A stretch of DNA of 64,000 nt from an uncultured candidate division Zixibacteria bacterium (lineage in GTDB: Bacteria > Zixibacteria > MSB-5A5 > SM1-73): NCBI GenBank assembly GCA_903908285.1, contig CAIVRH010000014.1, forward strand, positions 57,991-121,990. Direction: 5' to 3'. The notes below the pieces were generated by a model. It was not told the origin of the DNA, made no database searches, and saw only the letters and a program-made list of their open reading frames with translations. Shown one piece after another: positions 2,427 through 28,175 of this stretch. The translations under genes and the position numbers were made by a program. Within the stretch, counting starts at the first letter, position 1, and every line of letters begins with the position of its first letter.

Positions 2427-3806
2427 TTAGAATCTCAAAATCGATTTCAGCACCGGGATGGCGAAATTGACGGCAAAGGCAAAAGATATCAAATACATCA
2501 GCCAGTGAACCTCTCTTCCTTTTCCGCTCATCAGCTTGATCAAAGTGAAAGTGATGAAACCGAAGCCGATGCCGTTGGTTATGGAATTGGTCAAAGGCAT
2601 GACGATCATGATCAGAAAAGCGGGAAAAGCCTCTTCAAATCTCTCGAACGGGAATTCTTTTAAGGTGGAAATCATCAGAAAGCCGACGATTATCAGAGCC
2701 GGGGCGGTTGCCTGTTTGGGTACCACCCCCGCAATGGGAGAAAGAAACATGGAGAGGAGAAAGAGGAACCCCACCACTATCACGCTGAGCCCCGACCTGC
2801 CTCCGGCTGAGATTCCGGCGGCACTCTCGATATAAGTGGTAACCGAGCTGGCGGAGCAGGCGCCGCCGGCGACCGCCGAGAGAGAATCCACCAGAAGCAC
2901 CCGGTTAATCCGCGGGAGCCTTCCCTCGGAATCCAAAAACTTTGCCTCACCCCCCAACCCGATCACCGTCCCCAGGGTATCGAAAAAATCGGAAAGCATG
3001 ACCGAGAAGATCAATATCCCGGCGCTTACTACCCCTAATCTGGAGATGGCGCCAAAATCGAATCTTCCTATTTTGGAGAAATCCGGGAGGGTTAATAGGG
3101 TGGTGGGGAAGCGGGCAGTATCGGGACCAGAAAAAGCAGAAAGCCCGGATGCATAATTGATCAGGATAGCCAAAACAGTAGAACCCAATATACCGATCAA
3201 CAGCGCCCCCCTAACCCGTACCTTAATGAGAATAGCGGTCAGCAGAAGACCGAAAATCGCCACCACCACCGCCAGGTTATCGAACTTGCCCAAAGTTATC
3301 AAGGTAGCATCACTTTTCTGCACAAACCCGGCGTCAACCAGGCCGATGAATGCGATGAAAAGGCCTATCCCCACGGAGATGGCTTGCTTTAGAGAGAGCG
3401 GGATGGCGTTCATCACCGCCTCTCTGAATCCGGTGACAACCAGGATAGTGATTATTATTCCCTCCAAAACGATTACTCCCATAGCCGACGGCCAGGAGAG
3501 ACCCATCCCCACCACCATCTGATAAGCCACGATAGCATTCAAACCCAGTCCCGGAGCAAGAGCAAAGGGATAATTGGTAAATAATCCCATGGCGATGGAC
3601 ATAATGCCTGCAGCCAGACAGGTGGCAGTTAGGGCTGCAGATATAGGAAGACCTTTACCCAGCCAATCTGGATTACCGACCAGACCCAGAATATTGGGAT
3701 TGAGAAAAATGATATATGACATGGTCAGGAATGTAGTTATTCCTGCCAACACCTCGGTTCGAACATTTGTTCTCAGATCATTTAATTTGAAGTAATGATT
3801 CAGCAT
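2427..3806 (-). CDS. NCS2-family purine (adenine/guanine/hypoxanthine) permease, AzgA/PurP-like
   Basis: N-terminal signature YFKLNDLRTNVRTEVLAGITTFLTMSYIIFLNP and multi-TM hydrophobic profile. Start chosen at MLNHYFKL, which has a GGAGGG Shine-Dalgarno 7 nt upstream. Confidence 0.8.
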   Translation of the reverse strand: MLNHYFKLNDLRTNVRTEVLAGITTFLTMSYIIFLNPNILGLVGNPDWLGKGLPISAALTATCLAAGIMSIAMGLFTNYPFALAPGLGLNAIVAYQMVVGMGLSWPSAMGVIVLEGIIITILVVTGFREAVMNAIPLSLKQAISVGIGLFIAFIGLVDAGFVQKSDATLITLGKFDNLAVVVAIFGLLLTAILIKVRVRGALLIGILGSTVLAILINYASGLSAFSGPDTARFPTTLLTLPDFSKIGRFDFGAISRLGVVSAGILIFSVMLSDFFDTLGTVIGLGGEAKFLDSEGRLPRINRVLLVDSLSAVAGGACSASSVTTYIESAAGISAGGRSGLSVIVVGFLFLLSMFLSPIAGVVPKQATAPALIIVGFLMISTLKEFPFERFEEAFPAFLIMIVMPLTNSITNGIGFGFITFTLIKLMSGKGREVHWLMYLISFAFAVNFAIPVLKSILRF

Positions 3807-4005
3807 TGGATCACCCTCCAAAATTATCTTAAGGAAACATACAATATGCTATGGAATATTTCCCATACCTTTGTCATTGATAAGGAAATGAAGTGATTAC
3901 TATTTTTGATGTTCAGTTTATTAACATCCCCTAATCTATTATAGATAATCGAATTACAAGATTTCAACCTCTTCCGTAAAAAAGCTGACGGATCAGGCAA
4001 AGGAT

Positions 4006-4308
4006 TTGCAAAACACTCTGTTGGAAAATACAATCCTGTTCCATCAGAACAAGGGGGTTAAAGTGAAAGTCAAATTCACTTTGAATATGGAAAATCTTAC
4101 CGTCTCTTCCCAAAAGAAAAACGAGGGTGAAGAGCAGATCGACCGTCTCACCATCTCCTGGATCAGCGATATTTCCGAGGAAGAGGTTTTGAACATGTCG
4201 GGCAGATGGATCGGCACCAAGGATTTTTTGACCCAGAGGATGACCGATTTAAAGAGAGTGGGCGAATCGAGCTTGACCATTGAACCGGTCGAGGAGATGA
4301 AGGTATGA
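4006..4308 (+). CDS. Hypothetical protein (100 aa)
   Basis: Only an open frame; no recognisable motif. Confidence 0.25.
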   Translation: MQNTLLENTILFHQNKGVKVKVKFTLNMENLTVSSQKKNEGEEQIDRLTISWISDISEEEVLNMSGRWIGTKDFLTQRMTDLKRVGESSLTIEPVEEMKV

Positions 4309-4378
4309 AATTCATAGTTCAAAGGTTCAAGAGTTCAAAAGTTCAAGGGTTCTCCGCCTTCGGCGGAAAGGATTAAAT

Positions 4379-4684
4379 ATGATGGTGACAAATTCCGTGA
4401 GCGAAATTCTGGCAGTACCAGTCCAATGGTTTAAGGCGGCGAATGGGTTTGTATATGGTTACCTTGGTTTTTGGGGCCAGCTCGCCTTTGATCTTTTTCT
4501 CCTCTATTTGCTTTTTTTGATTGTCTTCAAAATCACCAAAACCGCCGTTCGATGTGTATTGTTTATAGCGATTCCATCCATGGTTTTATCTTTCGCTTCT
4601 TCCTATTTTCTTCCTTTCAGTTTCTCCATCATCCTGCCGGTTTGCGTGGCGCTGATGATCGCCATTAATATCGTCAGGTCGTAG
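4379..4684 (+). CDS. Hypothetical small membrane protein (101 aa, 2-3 predicted TM helices)
   Basis: ORF preceded by a GGATTAAAT Shine-Dalgarno-like sequence and a UUCG hairpin. The translation is hydrophobic. Confidence 0.3.
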   Translation: MMVTNSVSEILAVPVQWFKAANGFVYGYLGFWGQLAFDLFLLYLLFLIVFKITKTAVRCVLFIAIPSMVLSFASSYFLPFSFSIILPVCVALMIAINIVRS

Positions 4685-4892
4685 CGCCGACGAGAAGTAA
4701 AGCAATTTCAATTAAACTTGTCAATAAAAATATCTGCCCTGTTCTTCAGATACCCAATACCTATCATAAACTACTGGCAAAATCCAAAAACAACCGTGAG
4801 AATTGGTGAAAACTCTTGCCAAAAGCGCCTTCTCTTACTATATTATTATTGTTCAAAATCGAGAAAACACCTTCGGGCTATGGGAGGTTAAA

Positions 4893-6674
4893 ATGAGAAA
4901 GATCGCAATAACCATTGTTCTTTTGCTTTGCCCTATTTATTCCTTAGCTGATACCCACTATGTCTCTCCTCATGGCAATAACACTCCACCTTACACCTCG
5001 TGGGCAACCGCGGCGGATTCCATTCAAAAGGGGATAAATGCTTCTTCTTCCGGTGACACGATCAAAGTAGGAGAAGGGACTTACAGAGAGACTATCACGA
5101 TGATTCCGGGAATAATTTTACTGGGGAGCGGCATGGATGTTTGTACCATTTATCCGGGGAACCTGAGTGTTCGGGATATAGTTTTTGGTGCGGATAGCGC
5201 TGATATTGAATATTTTCACATAAAAGGATGGCAACCAGGTCGAACGGAATTTTGTACTGGTATTAGAAGTGCTGTCGACTCCAAGTTGAAAAGGATATCC
5301 AACAACAAAATTACCAACTGCGATGACGGTATTTATATGGATTGGGTGAATACGGAAGTTTCAAATAATATTATCATGAGTAACGAAGTTGGAATTGATC
5401 TTTTCATAATGTATACCGGTTTAATCATCAACAATACCATATCCCAAAGTAACTTGGGAATAAATTTGTGGAGCACAGCATCCCCTAAAATAATCAAGAA
5501 TGTCATTACCAACACCACTGATAAAGCGATCGCAGGAGAATTCACTGACTCTATGTTCTTTGAGAACAATCTGGTAATAGTAGGTAAACATTATGGTATT
5601 GCCCTGGATAGTTATGGCGGGTTCAAAAGGGCTCCTATAAGGAATAATACGCTAATAGGTGATACTACCGGTATTGGAGGAGGATATTTTCCACAGGTAG
5701 TAGGAATTGAAGACTTCAGCAATGAGATCAAAAACAACATAATATCTAAAGGCTACTATGGGATTGCGACTTCAAATTATCATGGTTACAACAGTAATTC
5801 ACAGGTTTCCTATAACGATTTATGGAATAATGTGATCAATTATGATGTGTATGGTTCTGCCAGCATTGATACCTCGCTGGGTGGTAATATTTATCTGGAT
5901 CCCATGTTTGTGGGAGGAGATGATTATCATCTGCAATATGGCTCTCCTTGCATTGATGCGGGTGATCCAAATATCAAAGACCCCGATTCTTCCAGATCGG
6001 ATATGGGCTGTTATGGGGGAGCTTATGGAGAAACTTACTCCTATTTGGATTATCCACCAAAGCCACCCGACAGCTTATCTGCTGTATCAGAATCAACCAT
6101 AATTATCCTCAACTGGAAACCCAATACTGAATCTGATCTTTCTCATTACTTAGTCTATAAGGATACCATAGCTGGATTCATTCCTGATACTTTCAAAATT
6201 GTCGGGAATATCCCCAAAGATAGCTCCGTCTTCAGAGATTATGATTTTGTCTTAGGAAAGACTTATTATTATCGGGTAGCTGCATGGGATATTATCGGCC
6301 ACAAGAGTGAATATTCGGATGAGCTGGAAGTCGAAGCAACTTCAGTGAATGAACATATCGAACAAGAGAATCGACCCCCCATGTATCAATTATCTCAAAA
6401 CTATCCCAATCCTTTCAATTCTGAGACAGTGATCTGGTATTTCTTACCGGATGTGGGTTATCAACCGGCAGAGGTTGAGATTACCATCTATAACCTTTTA
6501 GGTAAGAGAGTAAGAACTCTGGTCAATGAAAGAGAATATCCGGGGGAACATAAAGCTCGATGGGATGCAAAGGACGATTCAGAAAATGAGGCAGCATCAG
6601 GAATATACTTTTATCGTTTGAAGGTAAGCGGCTTGGAATTAGTCAAGGCAAAGAAGATGGTACTACTAAAATGA
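4893..6674 (+). CDS. Secreted right-handed parallel beta-helix (pectate-lyase/NosD-fold) protein with FN3-like module and T9SS C-terminal sorting domain
   Basis: Signal peptide MRKIAITIVLLLCPIYSLA after a GGGAGG Shine-Dalgarno. Beta-helix repeats (NNIIMSNEVGIDL, NNTISQSNLGINLW) and DPMFVGGDDYHLQYGSPCIDAGDP. C-terminus LSQNYPNPFNSETVIWYF...IYNLLGKRVRTLVNE...GIYFYRLKVSG...KKMVLLK matches the Por-secretion tail (T9SS type A CTD). Confidence 0.8.
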   Translation: MRKIAITIVLLLCPIYSLADTHYVSPHGNNTPPYTSWATAADSIQKGINASSSGDTIKVGEGTYRETITMIPGIILLGSGMDVCTIYPGNLSVRDIVFGADSADIEYFHIKGWQPGRTEFCTGIRSAVDSKLKRISNNKITNCDDGIYMDWVNTEVSNNIIMSNEVGIDLFIMYTGLIINNTISQSNLGINLWSTASPKIIKNVITNTTDKAIAGEFTDSMFFENNLVIVGKHYGIALDSYGGFKRAPIRNNTLIGDTTGIGGGYFPQVVGIEDFSNEIKNNIISKGYYGIATSNYHGYNSNSQVSYNDLWNNVINYDVYGSASIDTSLGGNIYLDPMFVGGDDYHLQYGSPCIDAGDPNIKDPDSSRSDMGCYGGAYGETYSYLDYPPKPPDSLSAVSESTIIILNWKPNTESDLSHYLVYKDTIAGFIPDTFKIVGNIPKDSSVFRDYDFVLGKTYYYRVAAWDIIGHKSEYSDELEVEATSVNEHIEQENRPPMYQLSQNYPNPFNSETVIWYFLPDVGYQPAEVEITIYNLLGKRVRTLVNEREYPGEHKARWDAKDDSENEAASGIYFYRLKVSGLELVKAKKMVLLK

Positions 6675-6749
6675 AATAAAATGACGAATGCTTTATAACG
6701 AATGACGGATCTGTCTATGACAGATAACCTAAGAGAGGAGGAGTATAAG

Positions 6750-8654
6750 ATGAAAGCGAATTGGATTTACATAATATTGTCTTTTTTGATTGGTTGTTCA
6801 ACTTTCTCGATCAGCCAAGGGGCAGGCAGATTCTATTATGGCACATACAGCGGGCATGAAGGGCAGAATTTTCCCTTCATAAGCGATAGCCTGAAGTTTA
6901 ATATTGTTTATGATAGTATAAGCATAGATAATGTGCAATTATATGTTAACAATTCCCTCAGAGCCATAGTTTCAAATCATGCGGAAGGCACACCTGCTTA
7001 TTACGCAACTTACAGCCATTATACTTTATGGGACCCAGAAAGTTATCAGGAATCGTATTTCCACCTAACTCCTATTGGTGGGGATACAGTTTTGGATGCT
7101 TCTGCTTACGGAGGAAAAGCAATGTACTTTAATCATCCTCCTGATTCTGCAGGATTCATTCAGACTGGCCCAGGTTATGATCAGGAGCTTGGTTCATCTA
7201 GTAACCCTATCCAATACACTGCTGAATTCCGGTTAAAATCACCACTTTATTTTCCTAATGTTATGAGTGGTAAGAGTGGTAGTGGCCCTGTGAAACTTTG
7301 TAGACTTATGGTGGTAGGGAATGGACAAGTTTTAGGTGACTCGACAGTGTATGGAAGAGAATTTAATAATTTCAATGGTTATAAGTCTTATAAAATCACT
7401 TATCACGCCACTCAAAATCATATCGAGTTTAAAATATACTGGTATGGCAACAGACAGCTATACGTCGACTATGTCAAAGTCTATGATTATAGTGGAAATA
7501 GGCTAATGACTGGACAAGTGGATCAAGCCATAAAAGATTATGTTAGCCAGTCTTGGGTGCATGACTACAGACTTACCAATGGAGACACGGTGGTTTATCG
7601 CTGGTTTTTGGTGGACGAGCCTTACTACATTGACTGTTTTGAGCCAAGCAGATATATTGATAGTTTGCTCCGGGAGAAAAGCACTGAAAGGGTAGGTTTC
7701 CAGGTATTCAATCAGTGGGGAAGTGATCTGGAGCATGAATACTTTATAAGGCAAAACCCGAAGGAATATAGTATCGACATTTACCCTACCCGGTGGTGGT
7801 TGGGGGAGACCACGGGTGCGACATATCAAAATGGCATCGACACCTATGTGCATCACCTAAATGCAGAGAAACAAAAAGCGATAGAAGAAGGGAAGGATTT
7901 CTGGGTAACCATACAAGGGCATTACTATGGCAAGTTGTCACCAGATAGTTTTTGCGTAGACACTCTGGATTATCCTCTGTGGGTCTCTGACAGTCTTGTT
8001 CCGGGTGTCACATATCCTGGATGGTATTGTTATTATCTTAAACGACCACCTACTCCAAATGAGGTAAGATTTCAAACCTTTTTAGCTCTCTGTTATGGTG
8101 CTAATTCCATTCTTAACTATTGCTACTATACGTATAATCATCCTGTACCGGAATATGGCGGAGACACGATCTTGAATTTCGGGTTATACAATGACTTGGT
8201 GAATCAACCTACTGATAGGTGGCGAGAAATTAAGAACTTCACTAGCCCGAGGGTTGTAAAGCTCGGACCATTGCTTAACCAGTTGACTTGGGAGGGTGCT
8301 TGCTTTGGTGACAGCGTTGGTGACTTCTACTTACGTAATGGCCCGCACAGCTACATCGACAGCATTGTTGGAATAATACATCCTGATTCCACCTATGTGC
8401 AGGTGGGATTTTTCTCTCCGCCTTACGGTGACACAATGTTTTTCATGCTGGTCAACCGAAGAACATTACCTTCAGAGAATGATACGTTTGAAGTTTATTT
8501 CAATTTCTCTGATGGACCATATGTGGTAATTGATATGTATAATTCTCCAGTACCAGAAGGCAAGATTTCTGGATTAAATCGGTATAAGATATTTCTACAA
8601 CCGGGGGAAGGACGGCTTTTCAGGATAGAAGGGAATGCAAAAAGGGAGGGCTAG
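6750..8654 (+). CDS. Hypothetical lipoprotein (about 634 aa), possibly a glycan-active enzyme
   Basis: Lipobox MKANWIYIILSFLIGCS. Large and Trp/Tyr-rich, with no confident family assignment. Lies 75 nt downstream of the beta-helix T9SS protein, so may be co-transcribed. Confidence 0.55.
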   Translation: MKANWIYIILSFLIGCSTFSISQGAGRFYYGTYSGHEGQNFPFISDSLKFNIVYDSISIDNVQLYVNNSLRAIVSNHAEGTPAYYATYSHYTLWDPESYQESYFHLTPIGGDTVLDASAYGGKAMYFNHPPDSAGFIQTGPGYDQELGSSSNPIQYTAEFRLKSPLYFPNVMSGKSGSGPVKLCRLMVVGNGQVLGDSTVYGREFNNFNGYKSYKITYHATQNHIEFKIYWYGNRQLYVDYVKVYDYSGNRLMTGQVDQAIKDYVSQSWVHDYRLTNGDTVVYRWFLVDEPYYIDCFEPSRYIDSLLREKSTERVGFQVFNQWGSDLEHEYFIRQNPKEYSIDIYPTRWWLGETTGATYQNGIDTYVHHLNAEKQKAIEEGKDFWVTIQGHYYGKLSPDSFCVDTLDYPLWVSDSLVPGVTYPGWYCYYLKRPPTPNEVRFQTFLALCYGANSILNYCYYTYNHPVPEYGGDTILNFGLYNDLVNQPTDRWREIKNFTSPRVVKLGPLLNQLTWEGACFGDSVGDFYLRNGPHSYIDSIVGIIHPDSTYVQVGFFSPPYGDTMFFMLVNRRTLPSENDTFEVYFNFSDGPYVVIDMYNSPVPEGKISGLNRYKIFLQPGEGRLFRIEGNAKREG

Positions 8655-8846: not shown

Positions 8847-11537
8847 TCATTCACAAGGTGCCGGTCCGCTTTTGAAAAGATAGTTGATTAAGGAGATCAC
8901 ATCTCCAACGTCCACTATCCCATCACAATTGGCATCACCAACGGTCAAAGGATAAGGCGGAATGCCGTTTTTGTAAAGATAGTTGGTCAGAAAAACGACA
9001 TCCGATATATCTACGGAACCGTCACCATTGACATCACCAGGAATATAATAAAGAGTGTCACTGTTGTTGATTGCGAACATAAGCTCCCATACTGCCATGG
9101 GACGCTGGTACTGGTTCGGATATCCGGAGGAGATATCCTCTCCTTCTTTCGGCTCCGATTTCTCATCGGCGAGGGTGTGATCATTTCTCCAATTTGAAAC
9201 AAAATTGGGGCGGGGACTATATCCTCCATCCCGCCAGGCCTCGGGAGTGTTGAACCAGTAAGCCAGATGATTTGCGACATATACCGGATAGTAGGCTCCA
9301 TAGGCGGTATTCAGCGCCTCGTTGATCAAACCCGAACGATACATCATGGCGGCCAGGTAATAAGTGGTTCCCACCCAGTATTCATAAGATTCCCGTTCAC
9401 CGCTGGGAACAGTTGCACCGCTGGGCATTCTCTCCAATTTAGCACCGTAATTCGAATTAGGAGCTACATTGACATTATATACCTTTCTCATGTGCGAGGT
9501 CAGCTTCCAGCGGGGCAGAATGTCGGGCAAACCGTATTCCTCGCAGTAGCGCTGACCACACAGGGCATCGCTGAAGACGGCAGTGGTATAGCTGCTTTTA
9601 GTATCGATATGGTAATAAAGTCCAGCGGTGTCCCACAGCTCTGCATCCAGATTTCTCCGAGCCACCTCCAACCAGGCTTGTACTTCCCCCCTTACCGGTT
9701 TGTTCAAAATGGCAGCCATGGTATCCATTGCTTCCAACGCACCTACCCAGAATCCGCCGTCGTACATATCCGTTCCCCACATGCCCAGACAGTCATGAGC
9801 GTTGTCATATCCTTTAGATTCCGGCAGTGAATCTTTGGGTTCATCTTCACAATCATAATCCTTCATAAACTGATATGTGCTCTCTATGGCGGGCCAAACA
9901 TAGTTTAAAAAATCGACATCATTAGAGAGAGAAAAATATCTCCAGCATTGTTGAATGAACTTACTGGAATTGTCGATCAAGACGTGAATGTGACCGCTGT
10001 CACAGGGAGCCAGCCGGTTCTCGTAACCATGCGGGCTCAGCACAAAGAACGGATCTCCATGATCGCAAGCCTCACCGGAAAAATCTCTGGGCGAACCGAT
10101 CTCCGGCGAGGTTTGGTGGGGAACGGAGGGATTGCACTGGTCATAATATAAAACATAATCCGCATGACATCTTAACAGGTCTCTTTCCATCTCCGGCCAG
10201 AATCTGGCAAAAACCACCGAACTATAATGGCCCACGTTGATATTGCCGGATAAAGTGTACGCCTGGGATTCCATGATGAAATTTTTGTGATCTTCCGGAT
10301 GCAGACCCATGAATTCCTCGGGATAGCCGGATCTTAATCCCGATTCCCAAAAAGACCCGCCGAACTGGTTATAATACAGTTCATTGAAAGCCGCACAGAT
10401 GAGCCAATCCGGGTAGCGGTTGTCGTCAATATATCTGGACATCCAAGCATCGATTTGCGCCTCCCAGACCGGATAGTTTTGGAGGGCTTCTTGGGCTATC
10501 TGGAAGGAATTGTCACTTGAAGTATCGAAATATTCGCAATACCTTTTCCACCACTGTGTGGAGTGTTCCAATCCGAAGATGTTTTTGAATTCGACTACCG
10601 GAAAATCCCAGGAAAGCACCAGTGGCACTGTTATTTTTTCTCCGGGAGCCAGCACTGCCTTTACCGCAATGGCGGAAGCAGAATCGAGGGAGTTGATGTT
10701 GTTTGACAATATCCCATCATCGGAGAATTGGTTCCAAATATCCGAACCGTCCCCCCCTCTATCCCAACTGGCATAGGAAACCGTCACTCTTTCGGTAGCT
10801 TGGGTGGCAATGCACCATTCGGAATTTTCAGTTTCAACCGTATTGGAAGGGTTATTTGCCTTTAACACGATTCCTATATTTCCGGAATCCGAAACCAAGG
10901 TATTGGAAAAACCGGTTCTGACTCTCTTCCCGCCATTAAAAGGAGGATTAGGCCAGGTAAACATGACTGAAACTTCAGCAATTTCCGAAGTGGGATTGGA
11001 AAATTCAAATTGCCAGACCGCTACCGGATAGGAGGTTTCCCGATAATTATTGGGTATGATCGGACTAAAAAACTCAGAAGATACGTCACACTTGAAGCAG
11101 TTATAAACACACCACCCTTTGGGCTGGAGCGCATAATAGGAGCCTTCGCCTTGAGCCATTTTATTCCAGGCCGGCATCATCGTATCCCGGGAGAGACATT
11201 TGACCTTTTTCCCCCCCTCGCATTCTTCGTAAATATGGAAAGCTCCCTCCTTCAGCCAGGTACTGCTGTATTCTCCGACTTCATCCGCCCAGGGTCCAAA
11301 AGAGCCGCTGATATTATACATGAAAGCGCCGGCGCCGAATCCTCCCAGAACTATACCTCTCTTGGGACAATTGCTCTGACAACCGGTCGGAACGTCACCG
11401 ATGGTCCTTTGCCATGCTCCTCTTGGTATCTCCAATGTTTTCCGGACATCCGCAGCAATATCGGTAATCCAAAATGAAAACAGAAGCATTACGAAACCAT
11501 ATATCAACCAACTGTGGCATATCCGATTATAGCGCAT
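8847..11537 (-). CDS. Secreted glycoside-hydrolase-like protein (GH116/DUF608-like (alpha/alpha)6 family) with C-terminal type-I dockerin
   Basis: N-terminal hydrophobic signal. RGIVLGGFGAGAFMYNISGSFGPW resembles the GH116 N-terminal PLGGIGTG motif. C-terminus GDVNGDGSVDISDVVFLTNYLYKNG...GDANCDGIVDVGDVISLINYLFKSGPAPCE is a duplicated dockerin Ca-binding repeat. Confidence 0.65.
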   Translation of the reverse strand: MRYNRICHSWLIYGFVMLLFSFWITDIAADVRKTLEIPRGAWQRTIGDVPTGCQSNCPKRGIVLGGFGAGAFMYNISGSFGPWADEVGEYSSTWLKEGAFHIYEECEGGKKVKCLSRDTMMPAWNKMAQGEGSYYALQPKGWCVYNCFKCDVSSEFFSPIIPNNYRETSYPVAVWQFEFSNPTSEIAEVSVMFTWPNPPFNGGKRVRTGFSNTLVSDSGNIGIVLKANNPSNTVETENSEWCIATQATERVTVSYASWDRGGDGSDIWNQFSDDGILSNNINSLDSASAIAVKAVLAPGEKITVPLVLSWDFPVVEFKNIFGLEHSTQWWKRYCEYFDTSSDNSFQIAQEALQNYPVWEAQIDAWMSRYIDDNRYPDWLICAAFNELYYNQFGGSFWESGLRSGYPEEFMGLHPEDHKNFIMESQAYTLSGNINVGHYSSVVFARFWPEMERDLLRCHADYVLYYDQCNPSVPHQTSPEIGSPRDFSGEACDHGDPFFVLSPHGYENRLAPCDSGHIHVLIDNSSKFIQQCWRYFSLSNDVDFLNYVWPAIESTYQFMKDYDCEDEPKDSLPESKGYDNAHDCLGMWGTDMYDGGFWVGALEAMDTMAAILNKPVRGEVQAWLEVARRNLDAELWDTAGLYYHIDTKSSYTTAVFSDALCGQRYCEEYGLPDILPRWKLTSHMRKVYNVNVAPNSNYGAKLERMPSGATVPSGERESYEYWVGTTYYLAAMMYRSGLINEALNTAYGAYYPVYVANHLAYWFNTPEAWRDGGYSPRPNFVSNWRNDHTLADEKSEPKEGEDISSGYPNQYQRPMAVWELMFAINNSDTLYYIPGDVNGDGSVDISDVVFLTNYLYKNGIPPYPLTVGDANCDGIVDVGDVISLINYLFKSGPAPCE

Positions 11538-12078: not shown

Positions 12079-13161
12079 ATGGAACTATTTTTCGATAAAA
12101 AACACATCCTGAAAGGTATCCGCTTATTCATCTTTTTGACCATTCTCGGATTTGCCGTAATAATCTTCTTCACCACCAGCCGGGAGAGTTTACAGGCGCT
12201 GCAATCGCTAAAGGTGCAATTTTTGTTTTTGGCGCTGCTTTTAGTATTTGCAGATATCTTTTTGGGCGGCTTGCGCATTTATATTTTCTTTACCAAAGAG
12301 ATTTTAAAAAAAGTCCGCTTTGTCGATTGTGCCAAAGCCAATTTAACCAACTATTTTCTTTCCGCCATCACCCCCGCCAGTACCGGCGGAGGACCAGGTC
12401 AATTGTATAGCCTCACCCGCCGGGGGGTTCCAATCTCCGGTGCAGTCTCCGTGTTAGCGATAAACTTCTTCTCCACCCTTCTCTTTTTTCTTTTGACCTA
12501 TGTTTTGGTTTTCTTTTTGACCCAACAGGGTATTTTTGCCAAGGGGTTGACCTACTTAGTCAGATTCAGCTTTTTGGCCTTCTCTGCCGCCTTCCTGGTG
12601 ATGACGATTATGCTGGTAAAGCCCAAGTCCCTGCATATCCTGTTCCGCATATTCTCTTTTTTCACAAAAATTATCTGGAGGAAAAACATCGAGAAACGGA
12701 AACAGCTGTTAGAGAAGATCGAAGATCAGGTGGTACAACTGCGGTTCTATCTTCAGCATTTTTTCCACAAGGAAAAGCTCACCTTGTTGTTCAGCTTTCT
12801 TTTAACCGTTATGTATTATTTGAACAAGTACCTGATGGCTTACGTGATTTTAAAGGGTTTGGGATTGAACATAAATTTCCTGCAGGTGATGTATCTTCAG
12901 ATCATCCAGTTTTTCATTATATATTTCTCCCCCACTCCAGGAGCTTCAGGTATTGCCGAGGTCAGCTCCGCCTCTTTGATGTCTGCTCTCATGCCTAAAG
13001 CATACCTCCCGATTTTTGCCATTCTGTGGAGGATTTTTAGCAATCACCTGGGGGTGGCTTTGGGGGGGTGGGTTACACTTAAGGATTTGAACCAGCATTT
13101 CAAGGAAAAGCAAGAGAAAGGGGAAGAAGTTAGTAAGGAAGTTCAATTAACTGAACCTTGA
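12079..13161 (+). CDS. Lysylphosphatidylglycerol-synthase-TM-region (UPF0104, flippase-like) family membrane protein
   Basis: 8 or more TM helices. Family motif YFLSAITPASTGGGPGQLYSLTRRGVPISGAVSVLAINFF. Confidence 0.65.
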   Translation: MELFFDKKHILKGIRLFIFLTILGFAVIIFFTTSRESLQALQSLKVQFLFLALLLVFADIFLGGLRIYIFFTKEILKKVRFVDCAKANLTNYFLSAITPASTGGGPGQLYSLTRRGVPISGAVSVLAINFFSTLLFFLLTYVLVFFLTQQGIFAKGLTYLVRFSFLAFSAAFLVMTIMLVKPKSLHILFRIFSFFTKIIWRKNIEKRKQLLEKIEDQVVQLRFYLQHFFHKEKLTLLFSFLLTVMYYLNKYLMAYVILKGLGLNINFLQVMYLQIIQFFIIYFSPTPGASGIAEVSSASLMSALMPKAYLPIFAILWRIFSNHLGVALGGWVTLKDLNQHFKEKQEKGEEVSKEVQLTEP

Positions 13162-13222
13162 GCAGATTTCAAAAATATCGTAACAAGATGTTTAACTAAC
13201 TATTGCTGAGAGGGGGATAATA

Positions 13223-14890
13223 GTGAAAAGAGTAATTGAAGCTCTGATAATCGGAATCATAGCTTCATTGATCGCTGGCATCATACTGGCACCTTACCTC
13301 ATTCCTATCTTTTGGCAAACTTACAAAACGGAAATTTATATCTCTGCTATTTTCGTTTTAGTTCTATGTGTGCTTTATTTGATTCTGGATAGAATAATAA
13401 GTATTAAAAAAAGATTGTCTGGGGCTTTTGAAGTTTCCAAACCGGTTAAAAAACTCACTCCCGATGACTTTCATATTACTAACTATATCGAATTCTATAT
13501 AAATAGGGAAAGCGACAAGGATATAGAAGATTTGTTGAGCAAAGGGGAATACATTTTCATAACCGGAATCCCCATGCTGGGTAAAACCCGTATGGCTTAT
13601 GAGGCAACAAAGAAGCTAACTGATTTTTATTTGTTGAAACCCAAATATGAGATGATAGATATCGAGAAACTTAAGCTCCCATTATTTAAAAGGAAAATTG
13701 TTTTGTTTTTAGATGACATAGATAAATATGTGGGGAAATTCAACATAGATGCTTTGATTAGAAAGATAAAAGAAAAGGCAACAGATATTATTGTGATTAC
13801 CACCTGCAGAAGCGGAAAGGAGTTTGAGCAGGTTTTCGCAGAGAAGGAGATGGAGAACTTATTGACTCAATGCCAGAAAAACAAAATCGAACCAAGACTC
13901 TTAGAAATGGATGAGGAGAAAAGATTAGCTACTGAAGTGGGTAAAGATTTAAATCAGATTGCATCCGACAGAACCCCGGGTTCTATTACCATCGACCTTC
14001 GATATATGAAGGAAAGGTATAATCAATTAAAAGAAGAGAAAAGCATTTTAAAATGCATGAAACTCCTAAGGAGCGGAAACATCTTTGTATGGAAAGAAGA
14101 ATTCTTAAAACAGATAAGTAAGGAAATATTCAATTTAGACACTAATAGATCAAAGTGGGATGATTATATAGAATCTCTTTTGAGCGCTGGATTTATTAAA
14201 AGATCGAGTGATCAGATTAACATTTCTCACGATGCATATCTGGATGACAGGTTCCTAGATGATTATATTGTGTCAGATAACGACTTAATTCAACTTAAGA
14301 ATATTTTATTTAAACTAAAAGACACAGAAAACCTCTTTTATTTAGGCAATGGTTTTATAACGATAAAAAACATGAGCGAAGCAGAAGATTGCTTCAGAAA
14401 GTCAATAGATATCATACCATATTATGCCGAAGTGCACTACAATCTGGGAACTTTGCTTTCTAAAGCTAAAAGATATGAGGAAGCGGAAAAAGAATTCAAA
14501 GAAGCTTTGTGGATCAATCCAGATTTTGCCGAGGTGCACTACAACCTTGGGACATTGCTTTCCGAAGTAAAAAGAAATGAGGAGGCAGAAAAAGAGTATG
14601 AAGAGACTCTGCGCATCAATCCGGACTATCTTGATGCACACAACAATCTGGGTATTCTGTTTAAAAAACATAAAAGATATAGAGAGGCGGAGAAGGAATA
14701 CAGAGAAACGTTGCGGATTGAACCGGATTATGCCGAAGGTCATGGTAATTTGGGGATTTTACTGTCGGAATTAAATCGACATGAAGAAGCAAGGAAGGAA
14801 TTTGAGATAGCACTAAACCTTTTCCGAAAACAGGGAAAAGTAGATGATATGAAAAAAACAGAAAAATTCTTGAAAGATATAAATTCTTGA
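13223..14890 (+). CDS. Membrane-anchored P-loop NTPase (STAND/AAA-like) with C-terminal TPR repeats
   Basis: GTG start after an AGGGGGAT Shine-Dalgarno. Two N-terminal TM helices. Walker A GIPMLGKT and Walker B IVLFLDDID. At least four C-terminal TPR units (AEVHYNLGTLLSKAKRYEEAEKEFKEAL and similar). Confidence 0.6.
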   Translation: MKRVIEALIIGIIASLIAGIILAPYLIPIFWQTYKTEIYISAIFVLVLCVLYLILDRIISIKKRLSGAFEVSKPVKKLTPDDFHITNYIEFYINRESDKDIEDLLSKGEYIFITGIPMLGKTRMAYEATKKLTDFYLLKPKYEMIDIEKLKLPLFKRKIVLFLDDIDKYVGKFNIDALIRKIKEKATDIIVITTCRSGKEFEQVFAEKEMENLLTQCQKNKIEPRLLEMDEEKRLATEVGKDLNQIASDRTPGSITIDLRYMKERYNQLKEEKSILKCMKLLRSGNIFVWKEEFLKQISKEIFNLDTNRSKWDDYIESLLSAGFIKRSSDQINISHDAYLDDRFLDDYIVSDNDLIQLKNILFKLKDTENLFYLGNGFITIKNMSEAEDCFRKSIDIIPYYAEVHYNLGTLLSKAKRYEEAEKEFKEALWINPDFAEVHYNLGTLLSEVKRNEEAEKEYEETLRINPDYLDAHNNLGILFKKHKRYREAEKEYRETLRIEPDYAEGHGNLGILLSELNRHEEARKEFEIALNLFRKQGKVDDMKKTEKFLKDINS

Positions 14891-19206: not shown

Positions 19207-21453
19207 TTATCCTGAACAGGGGGCGGATCCGCTTCTGTAAAGGTAATTGAGCAAGAAAATCACGTCCGTGATATCAACCAGGGTGTCCATGTTGACATCC
19301 CCCAATCCTATCGGATCCGGCGGCGAGCCTGCTTTGTACAGGTAATTGATAAGATAGATTAAATCCGCTACATCAATCTGTCCGTCCCGATTAGCATCCC
19401 CGCACGCAAAGGAGATATCCACTTCTTTCTGAGAAGGGATGTAGTTCTGTTTGGTAACGGTTACGTACATATACCCTTCCGTCGAGGAGGGGGAAGGTGT
19501 AAAAGTGACATCTCCACCGGCATCGGTAAAAGCCGTTAGATAGACCTCGTTGGACTTCCACAAACAAACATACGCCTGGTCTACCGGAACACCGGCAGTA
19601 GCATCCTCCACATGCACCGGAAAGGATGAACTTCCCCCGGGAGCAGTGGAAGCACAGGTGACCGTAAAACTATCCAGCGAATCAGTCCAAACCGGCATCT
19701 CCGGCTCGCCCAAGAGATTGAACTCCCATTCACAGTATCTCATATAATTATCGGTATTGGCATAATGATGCTTGGCATCCGCTAAGGTTTGACCCAGGTG
19801 GTGCATGCTGCGGCTGAACAGGCTCACCCACCACTGCTTGTCCAAGCCGGCAGAAAGACTAAAGGGTTGTCCGGAATAGAATAGCCCGTTACGGGTATTG
19901 CCGTTGAATGCCACCCCAGCTTGATTGGAGTTGTACATGACAAAACGTTCCGAAATACAATCACTGGCATCCATATGATTGACTTCACAGGCGAGGGAAA
20001 CTAATATGGACAACTGGTTATCGTTGGTCAGCGCATCCACATCGCTAATACCGATGGACCAGGTATGGTGATAGTCGCCGGTACACATAACGGTGATATT
20101 GCCATGGTCGGCGTGATTTACCAGATTTTGACCGGCATTGAGGGCGTTGATGACCGCGGTTCTGTGGTTGGTAGATTGGCTGTCATAGACTTTGGTTACG
20201 TTAAACTGGGCTGGAATATACGCGTCGATACTGTCCTTTAACATTTCCTCCCGGGTAGAGCCATCCACATCCATTCCGATAAGTAAAACATCCAATGAAA
20301 AATCGGTTCGAGGAGGATCTTTTTCATACTTAAGAACCTTGTTTACGAAGAGAGTAACCTCGGCAGTGCTCCCGACTGTAGCTCTACCCACGAAAACCTC
20401 GTTGGTCCAATCATTGTCATAGTCGGAGTAATACTGATCGCTGGGCGCGCTTTGGTCGTAATATAAACGGTAGCCAAACGGAACCGTCGCAGTTTCACCA
20501 CCGAGGAGAAAATAAGTGGTTCCCCAGTTAGTGGCAGCATCCATGACAAAGGCACGCACTTTCTGGGTGTCTGCACCGGTGTAGTTGGCGTAGATCCATG
20601 CCTTGGTTATGACCGTATCTCTTACCCCTTTCTGGTTATGCCAATCGACCAAAGGTTGAAAGGAGGAAGCATAAGCGGAGTCTGTAATGATGACATGGGC
20701 AAAAGGTCCTCCCGGGGGTATCATGGAAGTAGCCATTTTCAAACCTTGGACCAATTGAACTGCCTCGGGGTTATTCACCATTCCCTTTACCATCTGCTCG
20801 TAGGTTCTCCTATCACTTTCCGGAAGTTTGGATGAAAGGTAATCTCCGCATTCGTATCCGCTAACTCCTTCGATCTCGATGGTGATGGAGGAAAAGTAGC
20901 TAAGCTGTTTTTGGCTGGGAATGTAACTGAGAGGAAATATCTCCACCACTGCCATGCTTTGACCGGCTAAATCCGTCTGGTTGACAAACTGCACTAATTC
21001 TGCAGGATATGGCTGGGAAGAAGAATAGGTCTGGGCGTCAGGTGGAATGAAATCTGCATTGGTTGGGGATTGGCTGGTTAGCAACGGAAGTTGGGCTGGA
21101 TAGATATTATACACACCAGGGATTTGCACTTCGGTCTGGCTAACCACCCGTACACTATTAACCGCCATTCCGGAGGGGAGGGCAATTATGATCTCCTTGG
21201 TTGGCAACATCGGTTTTCCCAGCTCTGAGAGCCAGTTACCGTCTTTGAGATTTACCATATCATAATCATTCAGCTGGCTGAATGAAAAGTCGTCTTTAGA
21301 AAACTGGGCAGTATACCTAACGGAAAGTGCATCTTTACCGTCGGCAGCTACGGCTTGTGCCGAGACAAGATCAACCCACAATAGAGTGGATACAAACAAC
21401 AACAGCAGAGAAACAAAAATCGCCCCGGTAGAAAATGATATGGATTTATTCAT
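19207..21453 (-). CDS. Gingipain-like cysteine peptidase (family C25) with C-terminal type-I dockerin
   Basis: Start at MNKSISF after an AAGGAGA Shine-Dalgarno, with signal peptide. Catalytic His/Cys context HADHGNITVMCTGDYHH...LVSLACEVNHMD. C-terminus GDANRDGQIDVADLIYLINYLYKAGSPP...GDVNMDTLVDITDVIFLLNYLYRSGSAPC. Confidence 0.7.
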   Translation of the reverse strand: MNKSISFSTGAIFVSLLLLFVSTLLWVDLVSAQAVAADGKDALSVRYTAQFSKDDFSFSQLNDYDMVNLKDGNWLSELGKPMLPTKEIIIALPSGMAVNSVRVVSQTEVQIPGVYNIYPAQLPLLTSQSPTNADFIPPDAQTYSSSQPYPAELVQFVNQTDLAGQSMAVVEIFPLSYIPSQKQLSYFSSITIEIEGVSGYECGDYLSSKLPESDRRTYEQMVKGMVNNPEAVQLVQGLKMATSMIPPGGPFAHVIITDSAYASSFQPLVDWHNQKGVRDTVITKAWIYANYTGADTQKVRAFVMDAATNWGTTYFLLGGETATVPFGYRLYYDQSAPSDQYYSDYDNDWTNEVFVGRATVGSTAEVTLFVNKVLKYEKDPPRTDFSLDVLLIGMDVDGSTREEMLKDSIDAYIPAQFNVTKVYDSQSTNHRTAVINALNAGQNLVNHADHGNITVMCTGDYHHTWSIGISDVDALTNDNQLSILVSLACEVNHMDASDCISERFVMYNSNQAGVAFNGNTRNGLFYSGQPFSLSAGLDKQWWVSLFSRSMHHLGQTLADAKHHYANTDNYMRYCEWEFNLLGEPEMPVWTDSLDSFTVTCASTAPGGSSSFPVHVEDATAGVPVDQAYVCLWKSNEVYLTAFTDAGGDVTFTPSPSSTEGYMYVTVTKQNYIPSQKEVDISFACGDANRDGQIDVADLIYLINYLYKAGSPPDPIGLGDVNMDTLVDITDVIFLLNYLYRSGSAPCSG

Positions 21454-21631
21454 CCAGTTCTCCTTGGAGGTTAGGTTGGTGAATAGGAACAAAAAAAAGA
21501 GATTTCGAGAAGGGTCATAGGGAATTTCTTCCAAATAATGAACAGCCTTAATTAATACGTTAATACTCTTAAATATAATTTAACTAAATTCCTGAATTTG
21601 TCAAAGGTTTTCTAATACTAAAATCACTCGA

Positions 21632-23697: not shown

Positions 23698-24009
23698 AAG
23701 ATTCCCCTCGTCTTTTATCTATGTTTACCAATTATAGTATAACTTACCGACATATTTTGTCAACTACTTATTTTGATATTTTGGGGAGGGAAATGGGTAT
23801 GAGGATAGCTAAATTGTATTATCTTATTGTCAATCACTATGTCAGGAGCCTAAGGGCTAATAACCTATTCGGCTGTCGAGTCTAAAGCTACATTTGTCAG
23901 GCAAAATCCGCTTGCTTTTTAAGAAACTATAACTATATTGGGACTGCAAAATAAAAACTTTACAATTCGGAATACCTCTTTTTGCCTACTCCAAAAACCG
24001 GAGGTTCCT

Positions 24010-25551
24010 ATGCGTTCTCTAACGATTATAATTTGCACTATCCTCATTCCCTGCTCTTTTTATCATGCACGATCAACCGAAATCCATGCCGGATCAGAGG
24101 CGACTCCCCAGATACTCTGGTGGTACGATTTGAATGCTCCCTCTTTCGGGTCATCCGCGGTTGGTGATATCGATCATGATGGAAAATTGGAAATCGTTTT
24201 CGGAACCTATTTCAATGACGAATATATTTATGCCTTGAATGCCGACAGCGGCACTCTTCTGTGGAGATATAACACCGGGGGCTGCAATGATGCTTCTCCT
24301 GCAATAGCTGACGTCGACTTAGACGGTGCTTTAGAAGTGATCGTGCCCGCATCCTCCCCTTGCAGGATTTATTGTTTCAATGGAGCCAACGGAGCAGTCA
24401 AATGGTCAATTTCCACCAGCTCAAACTCCATCGACTCTCCGCCAGCGGTCGCAGATGTGGATAACGATGGTAAACCAGAAGTGATTTTTGGCACCTTCTA
24501 TGGCTACGTTTACTGCCTTAATGGTGAGGATGGAAGCCAATGCTGGCGCATCAACCTGGGAACCAGCAGTTACATTCAGTCCGAACCTAATATCCTCGAC
24601 GTTAATCAGGATGGGCAGTTGGATGTGGTAGTGGCTCAATGGGCCGGCAATAACCGGGTCTATGCCTTACGAGGAAACAATGGCTCCACTTTGTGGTATT
24701 CCGACTTGCCCAACGATGATATGTATCATGGCGGTTCCTTTGCGGATATTGACGAAGATGGCAAACCGGAGATCGCCATTGGCTGTTACGATAATAATCT
24801 TTATGTGTTAAATGGTGAAGATGGCAGTCTCAGGTGGCAATATACCGCACCTTATTACATCGGTGCACCTACCTCCATGGCTGACCTCAATAATGACGAT
24901 CACCTGGAGATAGTCATCGCTTCCTACAATATCATAAGAGCTTTATCTCATACCGGGAGCATGCTCTGGAGCTATACTGCGGGTGGTGGTTCATTTCGCG
25001 GATCTGCCATCGCGGATATCGATGGCAACGGCATTCTCGATGTCGCATTCGGTGCAGACGATGGCATTCTTAGAGTGTTAAGAGGTGATAGTGGTCAGGT
25101 AGTCTGGACTTATAATCTGCAAGCCCATTATGGAAGAACTTTTGAGATGGACCATGCGCCGGTGATTGCAGATTTTAATAATGATGGCAAACTGGATATT
25201 TTCATCATAGGCGGATATGGAACTTCCTCTCCGCCCAGTTCGAACCATGGGCGGGCTTATGCGCTTTCTGCCGGAAATGGCACAGGTCCCGGTTGGCCTA
25301 TGTTTCGACACGATCTCAGGCACAGCGGTAACTTTTATGGTTTCGTCTCTTTCATCCGGGGTGACGCTAACGGCGATAGTATTGTAACTGTCAGCGACGT
25401 GGTTTATCTGATTAACTATCTTTTCCATGGTGGCACACCGCCTGAACCGTTGGATGCTGGAGATGCCAATTCCGATCACACGGTTGACATTACGGATGTG
25501 GTATATTTGATCAACTACCTCTTCAAAGGTGGTCCACCTCCATGCAAATAA
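24010..25551 (+). CDS. Secreted FG-GAP/integrin-alpha-like beta-propeller protein with C-terminal type-I dockerin
   Basis: GGAGG Shine-Dalgarno and signal peptide MRSLTIIICTILIPCSF. Eight blades of D(I/V)DxDGKxE(I/V) (DIDHDGKLEIV, DVDNDGKPEVIF, DFNNDGKLDIFI and others). C-terminus RGDANGDSIVTVSDVVYLINYLFHGGTPP...GDANSDHTVDITDVVYLINYLFKGGPPPC. Confidence 0.75.
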   Translation: MRSLTIIICTILIPCSFYHARSTEIHAGSEATPQILWWYDLNAPSFGSSAVGDIDHDGKLEIVFGTYFNDEYIYALNADSGTLLWRYNTGGCNDASPAIADVDLDGALEVIVPASSPCRIYCFNGANGAVKWSISTSSNSIDSPPAVADVDNDGKPEVIFGTFYGYVYCLNGEDGSQCWRINLGTSSYIQSEPNILDVNQDGQLDVVVAQWAGNNRVYALRGNNGSTLWYSDLPNDDMYHGGSFADIDEDGKPEIAIGCYDNNLYVLNGEDGSLRWQYTAPYYIGAPTSMADLNNDDHLEIVIASYNIIRALSHTGSMLWSYTAGGGSFRGSAIADIDGNGILDVAFGADDGILRVLRGDSGQVVWTYNLQAHYGRTFEMDHAPVIADFNNDGKLDIFIIGGYGTSSPPSSNHGRAYALSAGNGTGPGWPMFRHDLRHSGNFYGFVSFIRGDANGDSIVTVSDVVYLINYLFHGGTPPEPLDAGDANSDHTVDITDVVYLINYLFKGGPPPCK

Positions 25552-27600: not shown

Positions 27601-27617
27601 TCACAGAGAGGTGTAAG

Positions 27618-28175
27618 ATGATAAGAACAAAATTTGTCTTTTGGGTGTGTTTGATCTTGATTCTTCTCCTCAATTTCGCTTTAGCGGTGAGTCTGGAAAG
27701 GACTTCAACTCAGATAAAGCCAAAGGAAGAACCAAAGACCAGAGATTTCTCCAATGCCAACCCCATAACGACTACCGAGGTGAATCAGACTCCCAGTAGT
27801 CTACCAACGTCAACCAATTTCATTATGGTTACAGATGTCTTGGATGGTTTTGGTGGTCAGAAGCAAGGTAATGCCTGCGATCTCTCCTTTTTTGCAGGTG
27901 GTCAATCTTCACCTATCGGTATGGGATCAAGCACAAATTTCAAGCTCTATGCTGGATTTGTCTATCCGGCAGTGGTGAATTGCGGCGATGCTAATGCGGA
28001 TGGGGTGATAGACGTGGGAGATCTGGTATATCTGATCAACTATCTTTTCAAAAGCGGACCCCTTCCCAAACCCTACCAGGCGGGTGATGCCAACTGCAGC
28101 GGAACTGTCGATATAGGTGACGTGGTATATTTGATCAATTACCTGTTCAAAGCCGGACCGCCACCAACCTGTTGA
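27618..28175 (+). CDS. Small secreted dockerin-only protein (about 185 aa)
   Basis: GAGAGGTG Shine-Dalgarno before ATG 27618. An ATGA overlap start at 27597 is also possible. Signal peptide MIRTKFVFWVCLILILLLNFALA. C-terminus CGDANADGVIDVGDLVYLINYLFKSGPLP...GDANCSGTVDIGDVVYLINYLFKAGPPPTC. Confidence 0.65.
   Translation: MIRTKFVFWVCLILILLLNFALAVSLERTSTQIKPKEEPKTRDFSNANPITTTEVNQTPSSLPTSTNFIMVTDVLDGFGGQKQGNACDLSFFAGGQSSPIGMGSSTNFKLYAGFVYPAVVNCGDANADGVIDVGDLVYLINYLFKSGPLPKPYQAGDANCSGTVDIGDVVYLINYLFKAGPPPTC

Follow-up and report, generated by a model that had tools for sequence, protein, structure and literature searches.

A predicted membrane-tethered STAND-type NTPase with an exchangeable transmembrane hairpin in candidate division Zixibacteria

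We analyzed a 64,000-nt stretch of the genome of an uncultured candidate division Zixibacteria bacterium (contig CAIVRH010000014.1; hereafter, the window), in which an open reading frame (ORF) of 555 aa encodes a P-loop NTPase preceded by two predicted transmembrane (TM) helices and followed by an array of TPRs. With high confidence, we identify its product as a STAND-class ATP switch that is tethered to the membrane and has nSTAND3/Avs5 as its nearest branch. It is a short member of a large, uncharacterized family of Bacteria and Archaea, with a fixed TM–STAND–TPR layout, and its N-terminal hairpin behaves as a cassette exchanged between otherwise near-identical genes. The best overall explanation that we can offer, which we hold at slightly less than an even chance, is a stand-alone membrane-tethered STAND switch whose output passes through the TM hairpin. 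In every domain of life, STAND/NLR proteins act as key switches of immunity and cell death, and most prokaryotic STAND clades have no known function. The family described here represents a minimal STAND plan, in which a membrane hairpin is joined to an ATP switch and a short TPR sensor, and we regard the swapping of the hairpin cassette, together with this minimal membrane-inserted design, as its parts of most interest.

Class and domain layout of the NTPase

Apart from the TPRs, the top Pfam match of the window protein is nSTAND3 (PF20720), with E=1.5e-3 for the full protein and E=7.7e-4 for residues 66-365. The same model matches 9 of 14 close members of the family (E<0.01) and 23 of 58 diverse members (E<0.001), and NB-ARC and nSTAND5 each match four of the 14 close members. 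Two distant relatives score above the nSTAND3 cutoff, one from Methanosarcinales (locus L015, 31.7 bits) and one from Cryosericum (L013, 28.3 bits), and the family as a whole appears to lie at the periphery of this model. nSTAND3 is the NTPase module of the anti-phage protein Avs5, whose architecture is SIR2-nSTAND3-TPR/Sel1 (bioRxiv 10.1101/2025.07.08.663546).

Structure comparison points in the same direction. We obtained an AlphaFold2 model of the whole protein (mean pLDDT 90.2, pTM 0.81), for which the Foldseek matches spanning the full length were SAMD9, the Pyrococcus STAND-TPR protein 6mfv, and EfAvs5. Because the TPRs dominate such whole-protein searches, residues 66-345 were also modeled alone, without the TPRs (pLDDT 86.3). 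The best structural match of this second model is the STAND module of EfAvs5, and its other matches include ZAR1, NRC1, and a second Avs5; the margin is modest, yet the predicted similarity is in line with the sequence evidence. When the NTPase region was searched against the PDB, both as a single sequence and as a profile, the only matches were marginal ones to P-loop proteins (SMUBP-2, DNA2, LptB).

Alignments and models divide the protein into a TM hairpin, a nucleotide-binding domain (NBD), a helical domain (HD), a winged-helix domain (WHD), and the TPR array (Table 1). The two hydrophobic segments, TM1 (residues 4-22, Kyte-Doolittle value 2.73) and TM2 (residues 37-55, 2.62), are separated by a loop at residues 23-36; the full-length model places helices at 2-22 and 35-68 and a beta-strand at linker residues 69-74, and in the models the helices of the HD span residues 229-267. 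The motif set found in the alignments consists of GxPxxGKTR, hhhhLDD, T194-C195-R196 at the end of strand 4 (residues 188-196), and TPGS. The G, G, and K of Walker A are invariant in the 58 diverse members, and T194-C195-R196 is invariant or nearly so across the alignments; the SHD triplet, whose histidine may correspond to the conserved WHD histidine (MHD/LHD-like) that contacts ADP in STAND proteins, is kept in relatives down to ~40% identity and lost in the most distant ones. The features of the gene stand well beyond chance, and its Walker A, Walker B, sensor-1, and TPGS motifs vary little or not at all within the family. TPR_1 is detected in the window protein with E=2.1e-30 and four scored repeats, and the start codon is GTG. 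An initial annotation of the window had proposed this domain order (two TM helices, Walker A, Walker B, a helical region, and TPRs) and had likened its logic to that of STAND/Avs sensors. The order proved accurate, and the likeness is borne out by the nSTAND3 assignment and the structural match to EfAvs5; no housekeeping family was assigned to the NTPase, nSTAND3 being its sole consistent assignment.

A word-indexed search retrieved 27 relatives, the few named ones being Zixibacteria. An exhaustive profile search with an alignment of the NTPase only extended the family to 2,523 representatives at 50% identity (E<=1e-3), with 407 at E<=1e-30. The layout is strikingly constant: the NTPase module starts at residue 60-130 in nearly all of the 2,523 representatives, a hydrophobic segment precedes Walker A in 149 of 170 proteins (most of those without one are N-terminally truncated), and TPRs lie C-terminal to the NTPase in 52 of 58 diverse members. 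Lysine and arginine are enriched past the last TM segment (3.8-4.2 per 15 residues, versus 1.1-1.9 before it), and following the positive-inside rule we therefore predict that the NTPase and the TPRs are cytoplasmic. Species-representative genomes with the family include Zixibacteria, Phycisphaerales, Cryosericota, Verrucomicrobiia, Methanoregula, Methanosarcinales, and Heimdallarchaeota. The largest members have about 1,170 aa and more extended TPR arrays, and the earlier statement that the protein is a third of the size of Avs sensors holds for the 555-aa copy rather than for the family at large. No description of a TM-nSTAND3-like-TPR family was found in the searchable literature. It may be one of the unnamed STAND clades of a recent survey (PMC13581612), and we would classify it as a new variant, in architecture, of the tripartite STAND sensor.

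Exchange of the transmembrane hairpin

Computed domain by domain, identity to the window protein reaches its minimum in the TM region, where it drops abruptly. Relative P0003 is 90% identical in the NBD and 18% identical over residues 1-65, while the corresponding values for P0002 (locus L007) are 75% and 65%. We could sort the hairpins of the close relatives into type A (the window protein, P0002, P0004, and P0005), type B (P0003 and P0006), and type B′ (P0008 and P0009). Type A shares only 17-24% identity with B/B′, and both kinds are present in each of two NBD-WHD clades. Locus L019 is orthologous to the window locus, with the same UPF0104 gene upstream and a beta-helix gene downstream, yet it carries a type B hairpin. 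At the DNA level, a mosaic segment comprising the intergenic region and the hairpin-coding region lies between two stretches of high identity to L019 (Table 1), its 3′ breakpoint falling just ahead of the juxtamembrane motif FxVxKPVxKLTPxDF. The NBD of the window is closer to that of L019, with its type B hairpin, than to that of L007, which has type A. On these alignments, the TM hairpin behaves as an exchangeable cassette swapped between near-identical genes. Second to the hairpin in divergence comes the TPR array (47-67% versus 68-86%), whose repeat number varies, including among relatives of 60-73% identity.

The juxtamembrane motif itself is conserved far above the TM helices and is recognizable family-wide; it could serve as an additional strand of the NBD, latch the protein close to the membrane, or contact lipids. 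Within the TPR array, two adjacent 102-nt units (14417-14629) are 76% identical in DNA, which indicates a probable internal duplication of fairly recent date.

Table 1. Features of the NTPase gene and its upstream neighbor; here and throughout, coordinates are positions in the 64,000-nt window
Feature	Residues	Position	Strand	Basis
Whole gene, membrane-anchored STAND-type NTPase with C-terminal TPR array, 555 aa		13223-14890	+	ORF, Pfam, alignments, AlphaFold model, fold search
Shine-Dalgarno GAGGGGG, 6 nt 5′ of the start		13210-13216	+	Read from sequence
TM hairpin type A, exchangeable cassette	1-62	13223-13408	+	Hydrophobicity, model, domain-wise and DNA comparison
Conserved juxtamembrane linker FEVSKPVKKLTPDDFHI; 3′ recombination boundary	69-85	13427-13477	+	Alignments, model
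NBD	91-225	13493-13897	+	Alignment, models, fold search
Walker A GIPMLGKT	115-122	13565-13588	+	Sequence, alignments
Walker B IVLFLDD; D164 and D165 invariant	159-165	13697-13717	+	Sequence, alignment
Sensor-1 TxR motif T194-C195-R196, STAND-type	194-196	13802-13810	+	Alignments, model
HD	226-272	13898-14038	+	Alignment, model
Invariant TPGS motif in the HD	251-254	13973-13984	+	Alignment
WHD: three helices and a beta-hairpin (325-334)	273-345	14039-14257	+	Alignment, model
MHD-like SHD just past the wing	335-337	14225-14233	+	Alignment
TPR array: five helix pairs and a capping helix	368-554	14324-14884	+	Pfam, model
UPF0104/LPG_synthase_TM flippase-like gene, lineage-specific syntenic neighbor		12079-13161	+	PF03706 E=1.8e-37; TIGR00374 E=5.9e-33
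UPF0104 3′ end		up to ~13103	+	DNA identity to L019 80-87%
Mosaic segment, intergenic and hairpin-coding		13162-13412	+	DNA identity to L019 13-53%
NBD DNA		from 13563	+	DNA identity to L019 90-100%

Proposed output of the switch and genomic context

To the layout, topology, nucleotide motifs, stand-alone status, and modular N-terminus reported here, we add switching steps drawn by analogy from Avs, Apaf-1, and plant NLRs. At rest, the ADP-bound NTPase would be kept closed by the TPR array, a form of autoinhibition that we base on 6mfv and on MalT-type STAND-TPR proteins. A cytoplasmic ligand, most likely a protein, would bind the TPRs; nucleotide exchange would follow, and the NBD-HD-WHD modules would then oligomerize. 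This would gather 2n TM helices into a bundle, which would constitute the output; since each protomer would already be inserted in the membrane, clustering of the TM helices is the only physical consequence available. In the weakest step of the scheme, the output would most likely be permeabilization or depolarization of the membrane, leading to growth arrest or death in a conflict or defense role. We favor permeabilization in a conflict setting because of the cassette swapping, the fast-evolving sensor, and the spread over distant phyla, and pore-forming membrane proteins are recognized effectors of STAND proteins (PMC13001434). Even so, output by hairpin clustering with a role in conflict is a tentative proposal, to which we assign clearly less than an even chance. 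A bolder version of it we consider unlikely, namely that the window protein is the first example of a widespread bacterial and archaeal family of minimal, membrane-inserted, NLR-like immune receptors with the hairpin cassette as their sole effector, in which a ligand of the TPRs triggers oligomerization and the hairpins form a pore, as a prokaryotic, pre-inserted counterpart of the plant resistosome, and in which hairpin swapping reflects selection on the effector, for instance to escape phage-encoded inhibitors. If the hairpin is indeed the effector, the family would offer a simple and tractable model of how NLR oligomerization leads to a membrane lesion, and the exchange of hairpins would add a new case of effector shuffling.

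The neighborhoods of the gene bear on this proposal in both directions. We reduced the loci to 44 non-redundant groups, 25 of which have 1.2 kb or more of upstream sequence, and clustered 794 flanking ORFs all-against-all. Across the 44 groups, no partner gene recurs beyond lineage-level synteny, and the gene therefore behaves as a single-gene module. Three cases of lineage synteny were observed. The first is a Zixibacteria sub-clade in which the gene lies between ispG/DUF4296 and NFACT, downstream of trmD-rplS-rnhB-yraN (five groups); such a fixed core-genome position points to probable long vertical inheritance. In the second case (four groups), the gene is followed by a 206-aa protein, a UbiE-type methyltransferase, NurA, and HerA, and the third is the window's own clade. 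The members of the Zixibacteria sub-clade are 44-50% identical to the window protein (L008, L009/L011/L031, L010, L026, L027, and L028), with ispG present or not and NFACT convergent. A neighbor that seemed to recur across lineages, in seven groups, was discarded as an artifact of TPR-to-TPR similarity: these neighbors are either C-terminal fragments of the same gene, with stops or frameshifts, or a lineage-specific archaeal TPR protein without a P-loop.

At the window, the neighbors comprise a dockerin-bearing GH116, a beta-helix protein, a Big_1 protein, a C25 peptidase, and an FG-GAP propeller, as well as MazG, an HhH-GPD glycosylase, and a permease. A defense-island setting is not supported at the window locus, where dockerin-bearing secreted enzymes and housekeeping genes surround the gene; among the relatives, defense neighbors are sparse, most loci being of metabolic or housekeeping type, with restriction-modification (R-M) genes near a few groups. 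Neighbors at other loci include purA, acyl-CoA dehydrogenase with a HAD hydrolase, methylmalonyl-CoA mutase, IspG, NFACT, and pyruvate dehydrogenase (PDH) E1; the pair upstream of the gene at L034 is PDH E1 alpha/beta, and the large neighbor at L070 is a DUF6035/WG-repeat protein. Clear R-M neighbors occur in about 3-4 of roughly 36 groups, representing 2-3 lineages: a fusion of Type I R-M methylase and specificity subunits near L013, and a 1,156-aa Type IIG R-M enzyme, convergent and 11 bp downstream, in three related archaeal groups (27, 29, and 40). One further PADLOC match among the loci, to a Type II restriction endonuclease, was not placed on a locus. HerA/NurA, a PDC-S27 candidate, a kinase, and a NACHT-LRR protein are ambiguous in this respect. 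Together, the R-M genes near L013 and in the archaeal groups and the NACHT-LRR gene at L016 hint at a context of conflict in some lineages.

These archaeal and Heimdallarchaeota loci have some features of their own. The Type IIG enzymes are encoded at L052:5694-9164(-), L050:4101-6713(-), and L051/L055, where the NTPase region is 32-33% identical to that of the window. In the same archaeal group, a TPR protein of 553-657 aa is encoded upstream on the same strand (L052:1129-3102, L037:45-1706, and L053:1180-2841), with an N-terminal domain of ~200 aa and with neither Walker A nor a TM helix. At L016, from Heimdallarchaeota, a fragmented gene of the family (two ORFs, 1524-2912) lies directly upstream of a gene for a 1,134-aa NACHT-LRR protein (3189-6593), so that two different STAND genes adjoin.

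Several observations weigh against an output through the hairpin in conflict. The nSTAND3 score of the window protein, 18.7-19.6 bits, is under the gathering cutoff of 27.2 bits. The window and most Zixibacteria loci lie among housekeeping and metabolic genes, and the position between ispG and NFACT is constant over five groups, which is unusual in defense genes. PADLOC models, including those for Avs and Tmn, were not matched by the window protein or 14 relatives, except for two weak PDC-S73 matches. The enrichment of R-M neighbors is suggestive at best: a rough binomial calculation gives P≈0.02-0.1 against a background of 1.5% that is borrowed from PMC13581612 and does not compare like with like. 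Searches of viral contigs, plasmids, and phages yielded no relatives, the viral scan being bounded by its peptide patterns. About a third of the members seem to have a single TM helix, and the hairpin lacks a conserved polar or pore-lining pattern, so that a plain anchor fits equally well.

The main rival is that the protein is a membrane-localized regulator or scaffold outside defense, an explanation that weighs nearly equal to the conflict reading and that we likewise regard as possible while doubting it. In this case, the hairpin would serve as an anchor, the TPRs would recruit cytoplasmic clients to the inner membrane, and the ATP switch would control assembly and disassembly. The mostly housekeeping contexts, the stable core-genome position of one Zixibacteria sub-clade, the lack of a PADLOC match for the window protein, and the absence of the family from the phage, plasmid, and viral collections searched all speak for it, and so does a hairpin that is poorly conserved in sequence, varies between one and two TM helices, and shows no pore-lining pattern. 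Moreover, no more than 198 of 589 prokaryotic STAND clades are defense-associated, interspersed with non-defense clades (PMC13581612), and the STAND fold alone does not decide between the two roles. On the other side, the family is spread over distant bacterial and archaeal phyla, and unrelated hairpin types are exchanged between near-identical genes, which is hard to explain for a neutral anchor under point mutation. The TPRs evolve faster than the NTPase region and vary in repeat number, R-M and NACHT-LRR neighbors occur in some lineages, and no conserved client or operon partner was seen. The natural model for such a regulator is the housekeeping adaptor LapB (YciM), which also combines an N-terminal membrane anchor with cytoplasmic TPRs and to which a nucleotide switch would have been added; LapB, however, has no P-loop NTPase and carries a C-terminal rubredoxin domain. 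We rejected membership in the LapB/YciM family: the NCBIfam LapB models score 14 bits (E=0.012-0.02), far under their cutoffs of 363-474, and the window protein has no rubredoxin match. Should the family turn out to consist of membrane regulators with a housekeeping role, it would clearly exemplify STAND proteins outside immunity.

The upstream UPF0104 gene, other NTPase classes, and known systems

The initial annotation had also proposed that the NTPase forms a two-gene membrane-targeting couple, for defense or signaling, with the MprF-like UPF0104 protein encoded upstream. The two genes do lie on the same strand, 61 nt apart (not 60, as first stated), and since this gap contains no terminator-like site, their co-transcription in the window appears possible. 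The pair is also kept at L007, at L019 (where the 3′ end of UPF0104 is retained at 78% identity), and on the P0003 contig. However, these four loci belong to a single genus-level clade of at least 73% identity, and UPF0104 is kept solely there; because the same loci also share the flanking GH116 and/or beta-helix genes, the adjacency is ordinary synteny. UPF0104 is missing beside relatives at 37-71% identity, and a phmmer search of every ORF at 70 loci likewise found none outside this clade. Among the groups with upstream sequence, it is present in two of 25, or in three of 26 if the P0003 contig is counted, and L019 adds a fourth locus with a shorter flank. The UPF0104 protein has no match in PADLOC. 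Linkage thus fails in other genomes, which refutes the proposed pairing, and in our judgment a two-gene couple with the MprF-like protein is very unlikely to be real. We consider it highly probable that the NTPase gene is stand-alone and not coupled to UPF0104.

It is also highly improbable that the NTPase is a generic AAA+ protein (ORC/Cdc6- or Trip13-like) and not a STAND protein. The structural matches (Avs5 at the top, with ZAR1, NRC1, and the second Avs5 also present), the consistent Pfam matches (nSTAND3, NB-ARC, and nSTAND5), and the proteins matched over the full length, which combine STAND and repeats, all oppose this. So do several STAND hallmarks, namely a Walker B of the form hhhhDD, a sensor-1 of the form TxR, domains in the order NBD-HD-WHD-repeat, and TPRs at the C-terminus. 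A membrane P-loop NTPase of the KAP family or of YobI/Tmn type, which would likewise combine membrane helices with repeats and belong to families that include defense proteins, is scarcely tenable: KAP proteins have four TM helices outside the P-loop domain and YobI/Tmn proteins have two inserted within it (PMC13001434), whereas here all hydrophobic segments lie N-terminal to Walker A and the NTPase is uninterrupted, and neither the Tmn nor the KAP models of PADLOC gave a match.

Among known systems, the closest is Avs5 (AVAST type 5), which differs in its N-terminus (a SIR2 NADase in EfAvs5, structure 9jap, versus a 62-residue TM hairpin here) and in its size (about 800 aa or more, versus about 555 aa). 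EfAvs5 and the window protein share 18% identity in the aligned core, the Avs models of PADLOC are unmatched here, and the defense-island context is inconsistent. The compact NBD-HD-WHD-TPR arrangement is shared with the Pyrococcus horikoshii protein 6mfv, to which the full-length structure aligns, and with MalT-type regulators. These proteins are soluble and lack a membrane hairpin, the outputs of the MalT type being DNA-binding, and no match to them was found at the sequence level when the NTPase region was compared with the PDB. The proposed output would have functional analogs in the funnel of the ZAR1 resistosome, a plant CC-NLR, and in the TM effectors of CBASS (2TM), Pycsar (TM), and Cam1, which are activated by oligomerization. 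In ZAR1, however, the helix is part of the coiled-coil (CC) domain and is soluble until activation, whereas the hairpin here would be pre-inserted, and the CBASS, Pycsar, and Cam1 effectors are driven by nucleotide second messengers rather than by a fused STAND module. Tmn (YobI) and KAP proteins also join sensing and output in a single membrane-bound P-loop NTPase polypeptide, and some act in phage defense (PMC13001434); they belong to other NTPase families, with TM helices within or after the P-loop domain, while here the TM helices precede a STAND-type NTPase.

The family gene is interrupted at several loci. At L006 (P0007), two consecutive in-frame TAA codons at 7270-7275, where relatives read KE, cut the protein short; the gene occupies 6001-7272 and the remaining TPR array continues in frame as an ORF at 7288-7971. 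This copy may be a pseudogene or a truncated one-TPR form, or the stops may be a sequencing artifact. The gene is split into two ORFs also at L005, L016, L034, L040, and L060.

Other neighbors deserve mention. A DUF5131 gene (phage Gp37/Gp68 family) lies upstream of the Cryosericum relative (L013:5981-7628) and an HNH-AP2 endonuclease gene lies downstream of the Phycisphaerales relative (L012:10982-11560(-)); both are mobile-element-like genes. In the window, a C-terminal Dockerin_1 is found on the GH116 glycosidase, the C25 (gingipain-like) peptidase, the FG-GAP/PQQ propeller, and a 192-aa protein (8847-11537(-), 19207-21534(-), 23938-25551(+), and 27597-28175(+)), which suggests that this genome may encode a dockerin-based surface display system. 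The ORF at 6702-8654(+) encodes a protein of 650 aa that is predicted to be secreted and has zero Pfam matches, and a 663-aa protein encoded at 25609-27600(+) has as its sole match a C-terminal Peptidase_S74 (endosialidase chaperone), a domain usual in phage tail fibers.

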